From an uncultured Clostridia bacterium (GTDB lineage: Bacteria > Bacillota > Clostridia > Christensenellales > QALW01): a stretch of 64,000 nt of DNA. The translations under genes were made by a program, and so were the position numbers. The notes below the pieces were generated by a model. It worked only from the letters and a program-made list of their open reading frames with translations, did no database searches and was not told the DNA's origin. How positions within the stretch are numbered: position 1 is the first letter of the stretch; each line of letters begins with the position of its first letter. Location: the NCBI GenBank assembly GCA_958448705.1, contig CAUDEY010000008.1, forward strand, positions 7,323 to 71,322. Direction: 5' to 3'. This document shows, piece after piece, positions 10,932 to 17,435 of this stretch.

Positions 10932-11798
10932 CTATATTTTAGAAAAATATTCTTCATCAATTTCATAATCTTTTATCTCTCTTACACCGATACCATATTC
11001 AGCCAACTTAGTCATAAACTCTTCACCGTCAATTAAATCTATTTGCTGTTTTCCGGGATTGCTAGCTTCTTCGATAGCTGGCTTAGAAAAAGATCCTGTT
11101 GTTATAAAAACTCCTTTTTCAATATCAGTTGTCAGAGAACCGCGAAAATCTCTTATCTCGGCAGCACCAACAGAACCTTGATAACGCTTGCACTGAAACG
11201 CTATATTAAAACTAAAAATACCGTTAATTCTTAATTTTCCAGTTCCGTCAATGCCTCCGTCTCCAGATTTTTTAGTAACATGTACATCATCAAAACCACA
11301 TTCTCTTAAGAGTCTTTGAGAAAGTTTTTCAAATGAATATGGATTCATTTTTATTAATATTTCATATAATTTTTTTCGCCACGGTTTAATTTCATCAGGT
11401 AAATCCAAGCCGCTATTTTCGAGTTGATCATCTGAAATTTCCGGAAAACTATTAGGCCTGGCTCTTTGATGAAAATTTTTTTGAATATATAAACCGTCAA
11501 CAGACTTTTTATTTGAAAAATTTGGTGTTATTGTCCAAACACTTCTTGCACTATTGGCAATCGCACCATAGTTTTTTAACAGTGTTCTAGCCCATGCTAA
11601 TCTATAATGAATTTCAGACAAACTTGTACTGTTTAGGTGAGGAATATCTAAAATTTCATCTGACAATTTTAAGCCTGAAACTGCCTTTGCGTTGATTTCA
11701 TCGTTTTTCCCCGAACCTCCAAGTTCTCTTAGCGCAACGTATGTTGCCTCCACAAGCTGAGCATATGTCGGCATCTGTACATTTTCGTTTTGTTTCAT
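10932..11798 (-). CDS. mrr: Mrr-family type IV (modification-dependent) restriction endonuclease
   Basis: The N-terminal Mrr_N-like wHTH is MPTYAQLVEATYVALRELGGSG. The C-terminal PD-(D/E)xK core is SGDGGIDGTG...FQCKRYQGSVGAAEIRDFRG. The start is coupled to the XRE stop (TAAATG). Confidence 0.85.
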   Translation of the reverse strand: MKQNENVQMPTYAQLVEATYVALRELGGSGKNDEINAKAVSGLKLSDEILDIPHLNSTSLSEIHYRLAWARTLLKNYGAIANSARSVWTITPNFSNKKSVDGLYIQKNFHQRARPNSFPEISDDQLENSGLDLPDEIKPWRKKLYEILIKMNPYSFEKLSQRLLRECGFDDVHVTKKSGDGGIDGTGKLRINGIFSFNIAFQCKRYQGSVGAAEIRDFRGSLTTDIEKGVFITTGSFSKPAIEEASNPGKQQIDLIDGEEFMTKLAEYGIGVREIKDYEIDEEYFSKI

Positions 11799-12026
11799 TT
11801 ACAACTGCCTCTCAATATTTTCGTCTGAAACAATTTCTACGATATCATCCATCGTACAATCAAGAGCCGTACATATCTTCACAAGAACATCGCTGGAGAT
11901 ACTAGCGCCGTCTTTGCCCATTTTAGTGATTGTGGCAATGCTGATGCCAGCTTTTTCGGCGAGTTCTTTCTTTTTCATATCGCGGTCGATCAAAAGCTTG
12001 AACAATTTTTTATAGCTTGCGGCCAT
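11799..12026 (-). CDS. XRE/Cro-C1 family HTH regulator (possible controller protein)
   Basis: 75 aa. KKKELAEKAGISIATITKMGKDGASISSDVLVKICTALDCTMDDIVE is the classic HTH_3 pattern. It is the first gene of the operon. Confidence 0.85.
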   Translation of the reverse strand: MAASYKKLFKLLIDRDMKKKELAEKAGISIATITKMGKDGASISSDVLVKICTALDCTMDDIVEIVSDENIERQL

Positions 12027-12078
12027 TTTATTACACCTCGTAAGTAGTTATAGTCAGTGCATTATATCACTAATCCAC

Positions 12079-12107
12079 ATTATACCACACTGCGTGCCAA
12101 ATAGCAA
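12079..12107 (-). promoter_or_regulatory. Sigma-70-type promoter for the XRE-Mrr-RM operon
   Basis: On the minus strand: TTGCTA, a 17-nt spacer, then TATAAT, upstream of a GAGGTG RBS and the ATG at 12026. Confidence 0.5.
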
Positions 12108-12195
12108 CAGCTTTCGGCAGAGAAATACTGCAATTTCAGCATTTGTCGACTTTTCGTTGCAAAGTTTCTGCTTTGTTTTATATGTCGTAAAATAT

Positions 12196-12213
12196 TTTGT
12201 TTACTGCAGCGCA
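12196..12213 (+). repeat. 18-bp direct repeat, copy 1 (TTTGTTTACTGCAGCGCA)
   Basis: Matches 15248-15265 at 17 of 18 positions. It lies between the divergent promoters. Confidence 0.7.
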
Positions 12214-12238
12214 TCTCAAACACTATTACGGGGACGCA

Positions 12239-12267
12239 TTGAAACACCGAGAAAAATATAGTATAAT
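12239..12267 (+). promoter_or_regulatory. Sigma-70-type promoter for the 940-aa helicase gene
   Basis: TTGAAA (12239-12244), a 17-nt spacer, then TATAAT (12262-12267). RBS AGAGGTG lies 7 nt before the ATG at 12335. Confidence 0.55.
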
Positions 12268-12334
12268 GAATGCAAACAATTACCAAAATCCCACAGCCTA
12301 TATAGGATCATATGAAAGATAGAGGTGTAAAACC

Positions 12335-15157
12335 ATGATTTCAGAAATGTTAAAAGTAGATGAGGCAATTTATGAAAGTAACAAGATTATTTGCCGTCAA
12401 ATCAGTCGAATAGGCGAATCAACACGCGGAGAGATTTCCCAAGAAGTATTGGAATCATTACGACATTTTGTAGAACACATCATTCTCAAAGTATACGCAA
12501 ATGGCAGAGATATAGAAGACACACACGACAATCTTAAAATTGCAGTCAAATATGCAAAAAGCAATCCTAAATTAATACATATATCTCGTTTTCATCATTT
12601 CTTACAGGTATCTGCGTCACATAGAGCGTTAAAGGAAGAAAACGCAGAGAGACTTATGATAAAATATTACGAATACTTGCTACGCATCAAAAACTTTTTG
12701 CGCGACAATTATTCTATGGATGTGCTTCAAAATCTCGAGCAATTCCCCTTGAATATTGATGACGAGTTAGTTGAGTATTATGCCAAAATTGCAAATAAAG
12801 TCGATTCATACAGAACTCCTATACATGGAGAATTTCGCTATGACAGATTTTATGTGCAAAAAATCAAGCCGTTTTTTGCAAACAACAAAATATATTATGA
12901 AATAACATTTGTGTCGGCAAATGATAACGCAAGTAAAACAGATGGCATTATTGCTTTCACTGATATGGAAATAACCAGTTACTATGCGGTCAAATTTGCT
13001 ATCGCCAATGACAATGTTGAAATATTTGATAAGCATATGCCGATTCGCGTTATTGTAGATTGGGAGGTAAATATTCGTCCTTGCGAACTTACGAACTTCA
13101 ATAAAATATTGACAAACACCTCAAGAAGCTATGGACAAGCAGAACAACGAAACATCAACCGTTTTCTAACCCAAACAGGTTTTAGCTTATCAGAAATAAT
13201 TTTGTTTTCTGACGAATCCTATGCACATGTAAGAAATCAGCTTGTTCCACCAACAACAGCAACACACTTTTTTGATTGCCTTGACACATGCAGAGATATA
13301 ATTAAGCATAACTCTCCTGGAAGCAACATACTGCGCTACCTATTACATCACTTGAAAAATCGAATCCTCAAAAAGCAATACAAAGATCTTTGGGTACGCA
13401 ATTATCAAGATGGCAGTTGGAAACATATTGGTGCTAATATAAATCTTTCCAACCTTTATTTAGCAAACGAATGTATTCCGTTTGATGAAATGCCCTTCTG
13501 CTCCGGATTGAAAAACCATGTTCCAAGTCTTTCTGATTTGTTTGAGTGCCTGGATGCAACGGGCCGAGAACATGAAATACTAGCGTGGATCGTTCAAAAC
13601 AACACCGAAAAGAAAAACGTACTTTTTACACCGCTTGAAAAGAACGAGGGGGGCAGATACATACTTGGTCAATTTAATGATGTAGAAGCACTTATTTCTA
13701 CATACAATCAAAAACTATACAATTCATCCAAGCAACAACTTCGTAAGATGATAGTCAAATATGATCATCTATTTATCGAACACTACAAAGAAAATACCGT
13801 ATCAATTATTAACACAATTAAAAACCTAACGCAAAACGGCATTAATAACTATACTAACATGGTGAATTATTGGATGCAAACAACAAGCCCCGTACTTTGT
13901 GATGAAAAGCAAAACGCATTGCTTAATATGTTTTCTCAGTCCAAAGTAGCCCTTATTTATGGTTCAGCCGGCACAGGAAAAACATATTTGATAAACCACA
14001 TATCAAATTTGTTTTCAAGCAAGTCTAGGCTATACTTAGCACAAACCAATCCAGCTGTAAACAATTTAAGGAGAAAAGTCACGGCATCTTCAAATTGTAC
14101 ATTTATGACAATTTCAAAATTCATAAGCAAAAGATACACGGGAAAAACGACATTTGATATTTTGATAATTGACGAGTGTAGCACCGTAAATAACCATGAT
14201 ATGAAAGAAGTCCTTAATCGAGCCAATTTCGAGTTGCTTATATTGGTTGGAGATACATACCAGATCGAATCTATAGAGTTTGGGAACTGGTTTGATTCTG
14301 TACGGTTCTTTTTACCTAATTCATCTGTATGCGAATTAACAAAGCCATATAGGAGCGACAGCAAGGAATTGCTTAATGTTTGGACAGATGTCAGAGAAAT
14401 GAAGGGAGATATTTACGATCTTCTTCAGACCTATGGGTTCTCTGCCGTTTTGGATAAATCCATCTTTTCTCCTGCTGTACATAATGAAATAATTCTATGT
14501 CTTAATTACGGGGGATTGTATGGCATAAATAATATAAATCATTTTCTGCAAGAAAGTAACTCTGGCAAGGCGATATGGAGAGGAATTCAACGCTACAAAG
14601 TGGGAGACCCAATTTTGTTCAATGATGCAGCTGATAACTTTTTCACACGAACAGCTGACCAAATTCCAATTGTACACAATAACATGACTGGGCGTATTAT
14701 TGATTTCCAGTTGCTTAACGAAGGAAAAGCAAACGAAGGAATACAATTCGACATTGAAATTGAAAGACCTCTCATTGATATGGATACAAATGGCATGGAT
14801 TTTACCATTGTCAGCAATGCTCCAAACGGGAACTCTATAATACGTTTCGTTGTAAACAAAAATAAGACAACCGACGAAGATGACGATGGTTCGTCAAAAG
14901 CAATAGTTCCGTTCCAAATTGCTTATGCTGTATCGATCCACAAAGCTCAAGGCTTAGAATATGATTCGGTAAAAGTTATCATTACTGACGAAATAGATGA
15001 ATTGATAACTCATAGTATTTTCTATACCGCAATAACTCGCGCAAGAAAATCACTAAAAATCTACTGGTCTCAACCTGTCGAAGAAAAAGTATTATCTCAG
15101 ATTAAACCACAAGACCACAAGAAAGATGTATCTTTGCTAAAGCTCGAAATAACCTAA
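12335..15157 (+). CDS. Orphan 940-aa protein: unassignable N-terminal ~530 aa plus C-terminal SF1B (Dda/RecD/AAA_30-UvrD_C_2 type) helicase
   Basis: Walker A is IYGSAGTGKTY (nt 13961-13984). Walker B is ILIIDECS. Motif III is LILVGDTYQIESI. The C-terminal motifs are AYAVSIHKAQGLEYDSV and FYTAITRARKSLKIYW. I can place nothing in residues 1-~530. Confidence 0.85.
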   Translation: MISEMLKVDEAIYESNKIICRQISRIGESTRGEISQEVLESLRHFVEHIILKVYANGRDIEDTHDNLKIAVKYAKSNPKLIHISRFHHFLQVSASHRALKEENAERLMIKYYEYLLRIKNFLRDNYSMDVLQNLEQFPLNIDDELVEYYAKIANKVDSYRTPIHGEFRYDRFYVQKIKPFFANNKIYYEITFVSANDNASKTDGIIAFTDMEITSYYAVKFAIANDNVEIFDKHMPIRVIVDWEVNIRPCELTNFNKILTNTSRSYGQAEQRNINRFLTQTGFSLSEIILFSDESYAHVRNQLVPPTTATHFFDCLDTCRDIIKHNSPGSNILRYLLHHLKNRILKKQYKDLWVRNYQDGSWKHIGANINLSNLYLANECIPFDEMPFCSGLKNHVPSLSDLFECLDATGREHEILAWIVQNNTEKKNVLFTPLEKNEGGRYILGQFNDVEALISTYNQKLYNSSKQQLRKMIVKYDHLFIEHYKENTVSIINTIKNLTQNGINNYTNMVNYWMQTTSPVLCDEKQNALLNMFSQSKVALIYGSAGTGKTYLINHISNLFSSKSRLYLAQTNPAVNNLRRKVTASSNCTFMTISKFISKRYTGKTTFDILIIDECSTVNNHDMKEVLNRANFELLILVGDTYQIESIEFGNWFDSVRFFLPNSSVCELTKPYRSDSKELLNVWTDVREMKGDIYDLLQTYGFSAVLDKSIFSPAVHNEIILCLNYGGLYGINNINHFLQESNSGKAIWRGIQRYKVGDPILFNDAADNFFTRTADQIPIVHNNMTGRIIDFQLLNEGKANEGIQFDIEIERPLIDMDTNGMDFTIVSNAPNGNSIIRFVVNKNKTTDEDDDGSSKAIVPFQIAYAVSIHKAQGLEYDSVKVIITDEIDELITHSIFYTAITRARKSLKIYWSQPVEEKVLSQIKPQDHKKDVSLLKLEIT

Positions 15158-15247
15158 TTATGAAATGCTGATTGCTGTTCATTGTGAACACGTTTCCAAC
15201 AATAAAAATACATTAACTACTTTCTCGATTTTTTCAACCCATTATTC

Positions 15248-15265
15248 TTTGTCTACTGCAGCGCA
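15248..15265 (+). repeat. 18-bp direct repeat, copy 2 (TTTGTCTACTGCAGCGCA)
   Basis: Lies 91 nt after the helicase stop. It matches copy 1 at 17 of 18 positions. Confidence 0.7.
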
Positions 15266-15527
15266 AAATTTGACTTGAATTCTGTGTCATTTTGAGTTAC
15301 AATATCAGCAGAAAAGAAAAATGCCTCTCGTTCATAAGCGGGAGGTGTTTACCGTATTATTCCGCAAAAACCCTGCTGACCACATAACTGACCACTTACC
15401 GTTTCGGAGTACTTGGAATATATGCAGAGAAGAGTGCCGAAGAGCATTGTTTTCGGAGCGGAAAGGGCTGAAAAAAGCCTATATAAGCAGAAAATGCCTT
15501 GCGATATCTCTTTGGGACCATCAGGCC

Positions 15528-15555
15528 GCAGGTTCGAACCCTGTCACTCCGACCA
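15528..15555 (+). pseudogene. tRNA 3'-end fragment (T-arm, acceptor 3' strand, ACCA); putative attR core
   Basis: GCAGG-TTCGAAC-CCTGT is a T-arm, followed by CACTCCG-A-CCA. The sequence 5' of it does not fold into D or anticodon arms, so this is a fragment rather than a gene. Confidence 0.6.
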
Positions 15556-15556
15556 C

Positions 15557-15594
15557 GTCGCCGCAAGCTGCATATCGCTTGCGGCGACTTTTTT
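15557..15594 (+). terminator. Rho-independent terminator directly after the tRNA fragment
   Basis: Perfect 12-bp stem GTCGCCGCAAGC / GCTTGCGGCGAC, an 8-nt loop, then TTTTTT. Confidence 0.85.
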
Positions 15595-15739
15595 ACAAAA
15601 GCGCTCATTTCGCAGCGTCTCCTTTTCGCTGCTCGCTTGTAAACGCGCTTTTAACGGTTTCGCTTGCTACCAACCTTTTGCAGGTGTATGTCTATTAATT
15701 TTTTCGATGGCATCTTTTTTATAACTTCTTTACATTTCT

Positions 15740-15780
15740 AAGCGATTTCAGTATTTTTTACTGCAATCGCTTATTTTTTT
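15740..15780 (+). terminator. Second terminator-like hairpin
   Basis: AAGCGATT (15740-15747) pairs with AATCGCTT (15765-15772) across a 17-nt loop, followed by ATTTTTTT. Confidence 0.45.
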
Positions 15781-15791
15781 CAGAATGAGTA

Positions 15792-15819
15792 TTGACAAAT
15801 AAAATTTTTCTGATATAAC
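15792..15819 (+). promoter_or_regulatory. Near-consensus promoter of the nucleotidyltransferase gene
   Basis: TTGACA (15792-15797), a 16-nt spacer, then an extended -10 TGATATAAC (15811-15819). AGGAGA RBS precedes the ATG at 15885. Confidence 0.6.
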
Positions 15820-15884
15820 TTAACGATTTAGTTCTGCAGGACTGAATGGTTGGTTTGGGAAATAATTTTTAGGAGATAAACATA

Positions 15885-16517
15885 ATGCATGATTTCAGGT
15901 ATGTAACAAAAAACGAGGCAAAACCTATAAAGAAAGAACTATATCAAATTCTTTACGAGGCGCAGGATTTAGTAAGAGATAAGTTTACTTTTAGTTTTAC
16001 ACCGATCGGTAGTTCAAGCCATAACATGATAACCTATGATGTAAAATCAAATATCGGTTTTGATTTTGATATCAACATTGAGGTCAATGACGATAATGAG
16101 GATTTCGAGCTGAAAGAAATACGGACGATAATCCGTACTGCTATTGACCGTATTGCGTCTCGCTATGGATACAGGTTTTGCGAAGATTCCACAAGAGTAC
16201 TGACCATTAAGAAAGTCAACACTTTTACTTCTCATATTATTCATAGCTGCGATTTTGCAATAGTGTATAACTGCGCTGATGGCAGACAACAGTATATTCG
16301 GTTCAATAAAGATAACAACTATTATTCTTGGGAATATCAGGGCAAAGGTTTTGCTGATCTGAATAAAAAAATGTACTGGCTGAAAAAGAACGGGTTATGG
16401 GGAAATTTGCAGGATTATTATATCGAAAAGAAAAACGCAAATCCGGACAAGCACTCTCGCTCAATTTTTGCGGAGTCAATAAATGAAATGTGTCAGAAAA
16501 ACGGCTATCGCAAATAG
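15885..16517 (+). CDS. Minimal Pol-beta-fold nucleotidyltransferase (210 aa), family unassigned
   Basis: PIGSSSHNMITYDVKSNIGFDFDINIEV fits the hG[GS]-x(9-13)-DhDh NTase signature. A candidate third acidic residue sits in HSCDFAIVY. The helical C-terminal part is ..KKMYWLKKNGLWGNLQDYYIEKKN.. Confidence 0.65.
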   Translation: MHDFRYVTKNEAKPIKKELYQILYEAQDLVRDKFTFSFTPIGSSSHNMITYDVKSNIGFDFDINIEVNDDNEDFELKEIRTIIRTAIDRIASRYGYRFCEDSTRVLTIKKVNTFTSHIIHSCDFAIVYNCADGRQQYIRFNKDNNYYSWEYQGKGFADLNKKMYWLKKNGLWGNLQDYYIEKKNANPDKHSRSIFAESINEMCQKNGYRK

Positions 16518-16745: not shown

Positions 16746-16911
16746 TGTTGATAGTGTGCATGTAGCGTATCAGAATTTAATCAAGAAAGGGATAAATATT
16801 GAAACGATTAAAAAGACGGATTGGGGTGGTGAGCAATTGATTTTACCAATAAATAATGATATAATTCATACGATTATTTTACGCGGTGATTGGAGAGTTG
16901 ATTTGTGTTAG
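16741..16911 (+). pseudogene. C-terminal fragment of a glyoxalase/VOC-family gene
   Basis: VHVDSVHVAYQNLIKKGINIETIKKTDWGGEQLILPINNDIIHTIIL resembles the last beta-alpha-beta-beta-beta unit of VOC proteins. An in-frame stop lies at 16726-16728 upstream, and the N-terminal half is missing. Confidence 0.35.
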
Positions 16912-17435
16912 ATAGTCAATTAAAACTGTATGTTCCTCAATACCGTGATTTATGGTATCGACAACAATTGCTAAATGATGCTGCTACTATGGACTATAAT
17001 AAGGGATATGATTTGGACTTTAGAGGATATCACAAAGATAGCGGCTGTATTGATTTTCCCCAAGGACAATGGAAAGATTGGTACGATTGGTTTATTGATC
17101 AAGAACCGAAACGATTTTATGCCTATATAACACGGTTGCATGATGGTAAGTTTATCGGTGAGGTTAATGTCCATAAAAGTGATGCTGCACCGTGGCATGA
17201 AATGGGAATCGTTTTAGAGGCTAAATTTCGAGGGCAAGGTTATGCGGTCGAAGCGTTGAAATTACTCCTAGAGTATGCTTTTGTGAACTTAAATGTTGAT
17301 GCTGTCCATAATAGTTTTGAAATGAATCGGGTGGCTGCTATTCGAACACATCTTTCAGCTGGTTTTAAAGAATACAACAAGGAAAACGATAATATCGAAC
17401 TATTAATTACCAGAGAGCAGTATTTCTCCCAATAA
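16905..17435 (+). CDS. GNAT-family N-acetyltransferase
   Basis: 176 aa with the acetyl-CoA motif GIVLEAKFRGQGYAVEALKLLLEYAF. Confidence 0.8.
   Translation: MLDSQLKLYVPQYRDLWYRQQLLNDAATMDYNKGYDLDFRGYHKDSGCIDFPQGQWKDWYDWFIDQEPKRFYAYITRLHDGKFIGEVNVHKSDAAPWHEMGIVLEAKFRGQGYAVEALKLLLEYAFVNLNVDAVHNSFEMNRVAAIRTHLSAGFKEYNKENDNIELLITREQYFSQ

Follow-up and report, generated by a model that had tools for sequence, protein, structure and literature searches.

In Nhi and AbiO, a single protein joins an N-terminal module to a superfamily 1 (SF1) helicase of the Dda/Upf1-like type. Nhi (SERP2475) of Staphylococcus epidermidis is 606 amino acids (aa) long and needs its short N-terminal PD-(D/E)xK nuclease for immunity; with a Dda-like helicase that contains PF09848, it stops the accumulation of phage DNA and is counteracted by a phage single-stranded DNA-binding protein (SSB; bioRxiv 10.1101/776245). 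Lactococcal AbiO has a similar predicted layout, including a predicted PD-(D/E)xK nuclease (FEMS Microbiol Rev 2026, PMC13064643). The gene considered here lies at positions 12335–15157 on the forward strand of a 64,000-nucleotide (nt) stretch of DNA from an uncultured Clostridia bacterium (GenBank assembly GCA_958448705.1, contig CAUDEY010000008.1; the whole stretch is called the window below). It encodes a 940-aa protein of the same general layout which, like Nhi, matches PF09848 and is carried on mobile DNA. It differs from Nhi and AbiO in that its N-terminal module extends over 455–530 aa and has neither a nuclease motif nor a structural match. Nhi is the closest validated analogue of the window protein; given that the latter lacks the nuclease feature, it may work like Nhi and AbiO but is not a member of their class.

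A collection of 145 'phage defence candidates' (PDCs), each comprising one gene or several, was assembled through 'guilt-by-embedding' in BREX, DISARM and type I restriction-modification (RM) systems and added to PADLOC, explicitly untested by its authors (Payne et al. 2024, bioRxiv 10.1101/2024.01.29.577857). The window protein is a typical member of one of these already catalogued candidate families. Its residues 5–937 align with positions 1–892 of the 900-position profile of PADLOC-DB v2 model PDLC05035 (PDC-S53; 1163.4 bits, E=0), the PADLOC models ranked below it match the helicase part only, and no other model covers the N-terminal half. The protein agrees with PDC-S53 in its full-length match, its single-gene architecture and its occurrence in or beside RM systems, and shows no architectural difference. 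A word-indexed search with the 940-aa protein returned 2,076 homologues, the best 120 of which are about 940 aa long (two are shorter, at 895 and 920 aa) and have 64–92% identity at 95–100% query coverage. The N-terminal 520 residues, searched exhaustively against 1.84 billion cluster representatives, matched 833 clusters at E≤1e-3, of which 301 reach E≤1e-30; as a length of about 900 aa is shared by nearly all members that are complete, the N-terminal module hardly ever occurs without a fused helicase. The original prediction had presented the gene as an orphan and as an undescribed anti-phage system. With this many relatives, 'orphan' is apt only if it means that the gene stands alone with no conserved partner, and 'undescribed' does not hold for a protein that matches PDC-S53 end to end and would be labelled automatically by PADLOC.

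With moderate confidence, we regard the window protein as a stand-alone PDC-S53 member and a mobile single-gene component of defence islands, most likely protecting against phage or invading DNA. A defence role is supported because homologues lie within type I RM operons or beside Gabija, Avs4, McrBC, GmrSD and AbiE. A pattern-limited scan of one genome per species (185,579 species' genomes) yielded 66 loci, mostly from Clostridia; others were attributed to Streptococcus cristatus, Aeromonas, Cyclobacteriaceae, Fulvivirga, an actinobacterium, a Lentisphaeria metagenome-assembled genome (MAG) and archaeal MAGs, a distribution that is patchy and crosses phyla. The homologue of S. cristatus (L048), which is 42% identical to the window protein, is encoded between HsdR and HsdS-HsdM. 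In a Clostridiales MAG (L035, 2314–21961) the genes run HsdR, GajA, GajB, homologue, a 342-aa open reading frame (ORF), full-length Avs4 (E=0) and a ResIII/DEAD helicase. At other loci the homologue comes after HsdR and GmrSD (L051), after HsdR, McrB, McrC and two ORFs (L006) or after a protein combining a phospholipase D-like (PLD) domain, helicase and DUF3427 (L017), or is followed by a TIR-STAND protein (PDC-S73; L052). A four-gene islet composed of AbiEi, AbiEii, PDC-S27 and the homologue, present in L077 and similar contigs, has housekeeping flanks and no mobility gene nearby. The stand-alone SF1B fusion in a defence or mobile context, which the original prediction had described at one locus, thus recurs in distant homologues; its claim of novelty was overstated for this gene, but its defence reading was reasonable and is now better supported.

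Conserved partner genes were not found within 6 kb, where the largest cluster of neighbours is present at 10 of 55 loci, its position varying between the two sides of the gene, and an HsdR-like cluster at 8. Pfam tallies of 232 near neighbours include the defence-type families ResIII, SWI2_SNF2, T1R_D3, HSDR_N, N6_Mtase, C5 methylase, McrBC, AAA_5, PLDc_2, DUF3427, AAA_15, AAA_21, Abi_2 and SLFN_AlbA_2, and, of mobility type, serine recombinases, integrases and transposases. When 133 pooled neighbours were compared with PADLOC, the best 25 families were all redundant methyltransferase models, which made this comparison less informative than the Pfam tallies. The gene is repeatedly found within type I and type II RM operons or as their direct neighbour, and an XRE-type regulator that heads the RM operon of the window recurs next to it in varied arrangements, both of which would also suit a second-line guard coupled to RM, as PrrC is to EcoprrI, that becomes active when RM is inhibited or overwhelmed. 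The RM type varies, however (I, II and IV), RM is missing at many loci, no RM subunit is conserved alongside the gene, and context is the sole basis of this proposal, which we consider improbable. Two homologues appear interrupted: that of a Methanosarcinaceae MAG (L054, 9983–12750) is divided between two ORFs (285 and 585 aa), and that of an Aeromonas sp. (L047, 10001–12676) stops at 749 aa while the tblastn match runs on. These may be pseudogenes or assembly errors.

The presence of the gene on an element with an integrase and MobL in the window, on plasmids and on two temperate phages raises the question of whether it is an accessory helicase of its carriers (integrative and conjugative elements, plasmids or phages) that comes to lie near defence genes only as shared cargo. 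Genes for serine recombinases, integrases and transposases often lie nearby, the motor part resembles TraA/TraI relaxases, and in one L. plantarum plasmid the gene comes after rep and DUF536. Against this explanation, homologues are found inside type I RM operons and in the AbiE islet, in a chromosome and away from mobility genes, and the family is rare in mobile replicons (5 of 72,556 plasmid records, 2 of 50,697 phage records and 6 IMG/VR loci). The window protein also has no relaxase or Rep domain: the relaxase model TIGR02768 scores 62.3 against a cut-off of 590 bits and matches only residues 516–656, in the helicase region, there is no relaxase Pfam match, and relaxases are absent among the Foldseek matches of the N-terminal model. 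In both temperate phages the homologue is encoded apart from the replication module and on the other strand; that module comes with a helicase, primase and polymerase of its own, and RM or methyltransferase genes are located near the homologue. Taking both sides together, we think a role as element helicase unlikely.

The two phages, TPDSL_ph1 of Terrisporobacter (L067, 8146–12013) and phi1605 of Erysipelothrix (L068, 8146–12009), have in common a module of three genes. One encodes a protein of 278 aa, the next the PDC-S53 homologue, and the last, which follows the homologue, a small helix-turn-helix (HTH) protein (gene at 11810–12013 and 11791–12009, respectively) that one phage record labels a repressor. 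Between the phages, identity is 83% for the protein of 278 aa and 77–78% for the HTH protein; the former matches PADLOC LmuA with its N-terminus (E=1e-13). The module resembles a mobile defence cassette that phages have exchanged.

The C-terminal half of the window protein is an SF1B motor. A helical extension ahead of domain 1A (pre-1A; aa 456–535, 13700–13939, forward strand) is shared with RecD2-type helicases and precedes the helicase core (aa 536–925, 13940–15109, forward strand), as assigned from Pfam, Foldseek and motifs. The five SF1B motifs quoted in the original prediction are all present at the expected residues: motif I (GSAGTGKT, aa 543–550), motif II (IIDECS, 611–616), motif III (VGDTYQ, 638–643), motif V (SIHKAQGLEYD, 867–877) and motif VI (TAITRARKSL, 898–907); motif Ia (569–575) and motif IV (R673) complete the series. 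Across 92 homologues, no variation is seen at K549, D613, D640, R673, K870, E875 or R902. Pfam matches above cut-off are confined to residues 524–907 and comprise AAA_30, Viral_helicase1, SLFN-g3_helicase and UvrD_C_2, with PF09848 (DUF2075/SLFN-g3_helicase) at 46.1 bits against a cut-off of 24. Foldseek matched the full-length model to RecD2 (3gpl, E=2.9e-21), RecD (7.5e-19), Pif1 (~1e-14) and Dda (7.6e-14), with target-normalised TM-scores of 0.5–0.65. Going by structural class alone, translocation on single-stranded DNA (ssDNA) would have 5'→3' polarity.

Homologues are annotated as 'ATP-dependent RecD-like DNA helicase', and RecD2 is the top structural match, as would be expected of a housekeeping DNA-repair helicase paralogous to RecD2. 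The window protein shares all seven helicase motifs with RecD2, RecD, Pif1 and Dda, and its pre-1A extension aligns with the RecD2 profile (TIGR01448, residues 456–673 to profile positions 246–475). It nevertheless scores below every equivalog cut-off (106.4 against 500 bits for RecD2, TIGR01448; 112.3 against 310.15 bits for RecD, TIGR01447), and its N-terminal module of about 455 aa is unrelated to any part of these proteins. Unlike a core repair or replication gene, the window gene is accessory and moves horizontally, being patchily distributed across phyla with non-syntenic flanks. We therefore consider a RecD2 paralogue highly improbable, and this explanation, the RM-coupled guard and the element helicase are each less well supported than the defence reading. 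Related helicase cores are also listed in defence context: PADLOC PDC-S68 (E=2e-29), the type IV CRISPR-associated RecD (7e-22) and PADLOC 'RecD_like' (2e-13), a RecD/Tra ATPase with an N-terminal HHH domain. All three match only residues ~480–916, and their N-terminal modules differ from that of the window protein. Dna2, a eukaryotic replication and repair enzyme, has an N-terminal domain, a beta-barrel and an SF1B motor in the same order (Foldseek, 5ean, E=1.6e-10), but its PD-(D/E)xK/Fe-S nuclease is without counterpart in the window protein and the overall TM-score is 0.22.

The N-terminal half had been called unrecognisable in the original prediction, and searches by sequence and by structure bear this out. 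AlphaFold2 models built with 92–102 homologues are of high confidence (residues 1–530, predicted local distance difference test (pLDDT) score 92.7 and predicted TM-score (pTM) 0.88; full length, pLDDT 88.6 and pTM 0.86), and the full-length protein is predicted to form a single compact body. In the model, a six-helix domain (residues 7–158 within aa 1–158; 12335–12808) is followed by a five-stranded beta-barrel resembling an oligonucleotide/oligosaccharide-binding (OB) fold (aa 171–245; 12845–13069) and a mixed alpha/beta region (residues 249–455 within aa 246–455; 13070–13699), all on the forward strand. The N-terminal ~455 residues gave nothing above threshold in Pfam or NCBIfam and no sequence match in the PDB; a profile of 21 N-terminal sequences had no PDB-sequence match and its members no Pfam match in common; and Foldseek with the model of residues 1–530 retrieved no structure from the PDB or BFVD at E≤1e-3. 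The sole domain to recur among the weaker Foldseek matches is the OB fold (Rim1, RPA70N, LEF-3, bacterial SSBs and DUF3127), with match probabilities of up to 0.87 in the PDB and 0.99 in BFVD. A comparison of sliced profiles with hhalign gave no sign that residues 246–535 are a second helicase domain or a duplication; given that domains 1A and 2A of the motor also went unlinked, this test is insensitive.

Among distant homologues, the N-terminal module is 35–40% identical and the motor 40–47%. Conservation at this level fits a nucleic-acid-binding or enzymatic role better than it fits a fast-evolving sensor of phage proteins. In the six-helix domain the near-invariant polar residues are R43, E47, H87, S95, H96, R106, K110 and Y111; in the beta-barrel Y173, Y188, E189, K201 and Y217 are near-invariant, and R248 and E251 just after it. 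The alpha/beta region contains an invariant F383/P387 motif (CIPFDxMPF...H395) together with the near-invariant N331, Y335, Q348 and E414. The one N-terminal feature singled out in the original prediction was an R-x4-H string, RHFVEH. The string is indeed there, at aa 43–48, but it is not a family motif, because only 38 of the 92 sequences retain H48, against 90 for R43. A reading of RHFVEH as a HEPN signature was rejected on the same ground, and the only HEPN match from Foldseek was at rank 44 with E=2. A match to DYW_deaminase at residues 48–94 (E=0.015–0.07) is below cut-off, has no CxxC and is not among the families recurring over 21 N-terminal homologues; we attribute it to chance. The GIY-YIG-like 'YYI...YYE' pattern noticed by eye was likewise discarded: its tyrosine motifs lie on the long hairpin strands of the OB-like barrel, and Foldseek retrieved no GIY-YIG structures.

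A less probable reading, in our view, is that the protein serves in defence but its N-terminal module is a cryptic enzyme of unrecognised fold (for example a nuclease, an NTPase or a modifying enzyme) acting as the effector, with the helicase serving it only as sensor or as motor for delivery, comparable to Nhi, AbiO and Dna2. The layout parallels that of the validated Nhi and the predicted layout of AbiO; the module is conserved nearly to the level of the motor, with R43, H96, E189, K201, R248, E251, Q348 and H395 invariant or nearly so; and the model is of high confidence yet has no structural analogue. Signatures of PD-(D/E)xK, HNH, PLD, GIY-YIG and HEPN were, however, not found in the N-terminal half. 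A nuclease in particular has no Pfam match in residues 1–530 and no Foldseek match, the alignment shows no D...(D/E)xK that is conserved, profile searches of Pfam and the PDB were empty, and the module contains no conserved cluster of Cys and His residues for metal binding.

Under the defence reading that we prefer, the motor would load on ssDNA that the replication or recombination intermediates of phages expose, a step mediated by the OB-like barrel and the aromatic and basic residues conserved in it. ATP-driven 5'→3' translocation would follow, and would either dismantle the intermediates and the proteins bound to them or pass DNA on to an as yet unrecognised active site of the N-terminal module. 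In a protein without known nuclease motifs, this effector step would be nuclease-independent or would use a new active site, for which the cluster of R43, E47, H87, H96, R106, K110 and Y111 is a candidate. A specific version of this mechanism, in which PDC-S53 is nuclease-free, its new N-terminal fold recognises phage ssDNA intermediates and the motor itself is the effector, or in which a new catalytic site takes that part, is one we put forward as speculative. Helicases are common in defence proteins, but, to our knowledge, nearly all of those characterised join the motor to a nuclease or another effector that can be recognised, a pattern from which PDC-S53 departs: about 455 well-conserved and confidently modelled residues are without a sequence or structural relative. 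If protection and mechanism were demonstrated, a database candidate would become a system and could reveal a new effector fold or motor-only immunity; and were the nuclease-free or new-catalytic-site version true, the mechanism would be one not yet described for bacterial defence helicases.

Several observations weigh against a defence role or against the mechanism just outlined. The matches of the barrel to OB folds are 80–100 aa long with root-mean-square deviations of 4–6 Å, and all have E>1e-3. With no effector motif found, the mechanism rests on analogy. Many neighbours of the family are housekeeping genes (a minority, for metabolism or transport) or mobility genes, and the neighbour counts are raw, without background correction for enrichment. 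On the 10.6-kb L. plantarum plasmid the homologue is directly after rep and DUF536 on the same strand, an arrangement that also fits a plasmid-maintenance role. The name 'PDC-S53' occurs in none of the paper texts searched, and these papers yielded no experiment on the family, no description of its domains and no mechanism, nor any characterised RecD-like or SF1B defence system of a single gene that would correspond to it; in a cold-seep study, 4 of 8 PDC candidates were protective, PDC-S53 not being among the eight.

The reading frame itself is well supported, beginning with ATG 7 nt after a ribosome-binding site, AGAGGTG (12321–12327). The near-consensus promoter proposed for the gene was also confirmed as a sigma-70-type site, TTGAAA-17-TATAAT (12239–12267, forward strand), which agrees with the consensus at 11 of 12 positions and is the top-scoring site in a scan of 4.2 kb (11800–16000). 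Promoter-like sites as a whole are in no excess over that interval (16 observed, 15.9 expected). A promoter-like TTGAAT-17-TACAAT lies 3' of the gene (15275–15303, forward strand).

The Pfam assignments of the neighbours agree with the divergent XRE-Mrr-RM operon originally described beside the gene. A 75-aa XRE-type HTH gene (HTH_26, HTH_3; 11799–12026, reverse strand) is the first of this operon and is preceded by its own promoter, TTGCTA-17-TATAAT with a TG extension (12107→12079, reverse strand), pointing away from the helicase gene. Mrr (10932–11798), Vsr and then a C5 cytosine methylase, and also an NgoFVII-type PLD restriction enzyme, are encoded on the same reverse strand, and a MobL relaxase and a tyrosine integrase further left in the window; the helicase gene is therefore located among restriction genes on a mobile element. 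DNA similarity to the window locus is confined to the gene itself at all loci except L001, L002 and L026, where it also takes in the XRE gene and the intergenic promoter region. Homologues of the XRE/HTH_26 protein (46–89% identical) adjoin PDC-S53 genes at these three loci, all from Clostridia, where they are divergent, and in the two phages, where they are directly downstream on the same strand. From this recurrence, the XRE protein may be a controller-type regulator shared by RM and defence genes. Phage phi1605 encodes an extra XRE homologue upstream of type IIS RM genes.

Downstream of the helicase gene is a conserved non-coding element of ~180 nt (15377–15588, forward strand), made up in part of a tRNA-like T-arm, acceptor and CCA (15528–15555) and a strong terminator hairpin directly after them (15557–15588). 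It is 72–77% conserved 3' of the homologue in L026 (12985–13163) and L002 (12012–12161), and is the downstream boundary of the conserved module. ARAGORN called no tRNA or tmRNA in it, and it matched no Rfam family; it may be the remnant of a tRNA or tmRNA integration target (an att remnant) or a small RNA. The putative attR that the original prediction placed on this side could not be verified: no repeat of at least 12 nt links the integrase end with the region at 15.1–19 kb, and the tRNA-like 3' end occurs once in the window, so that an attL/attR pair was rejected. Beyond the element are two ORFs on which we made side observations. The second, of 176 aa (16905–17435), had no match in a scan that covered PADLOC only. 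The first, of 210 aa (15885–16517, forward strand), has no Pfam or PADLOC match and no homologue in the retrieved loci; inspected by eye, it contains a GSS...DFD pattern that recalls minimal nucleotidyltransferases.

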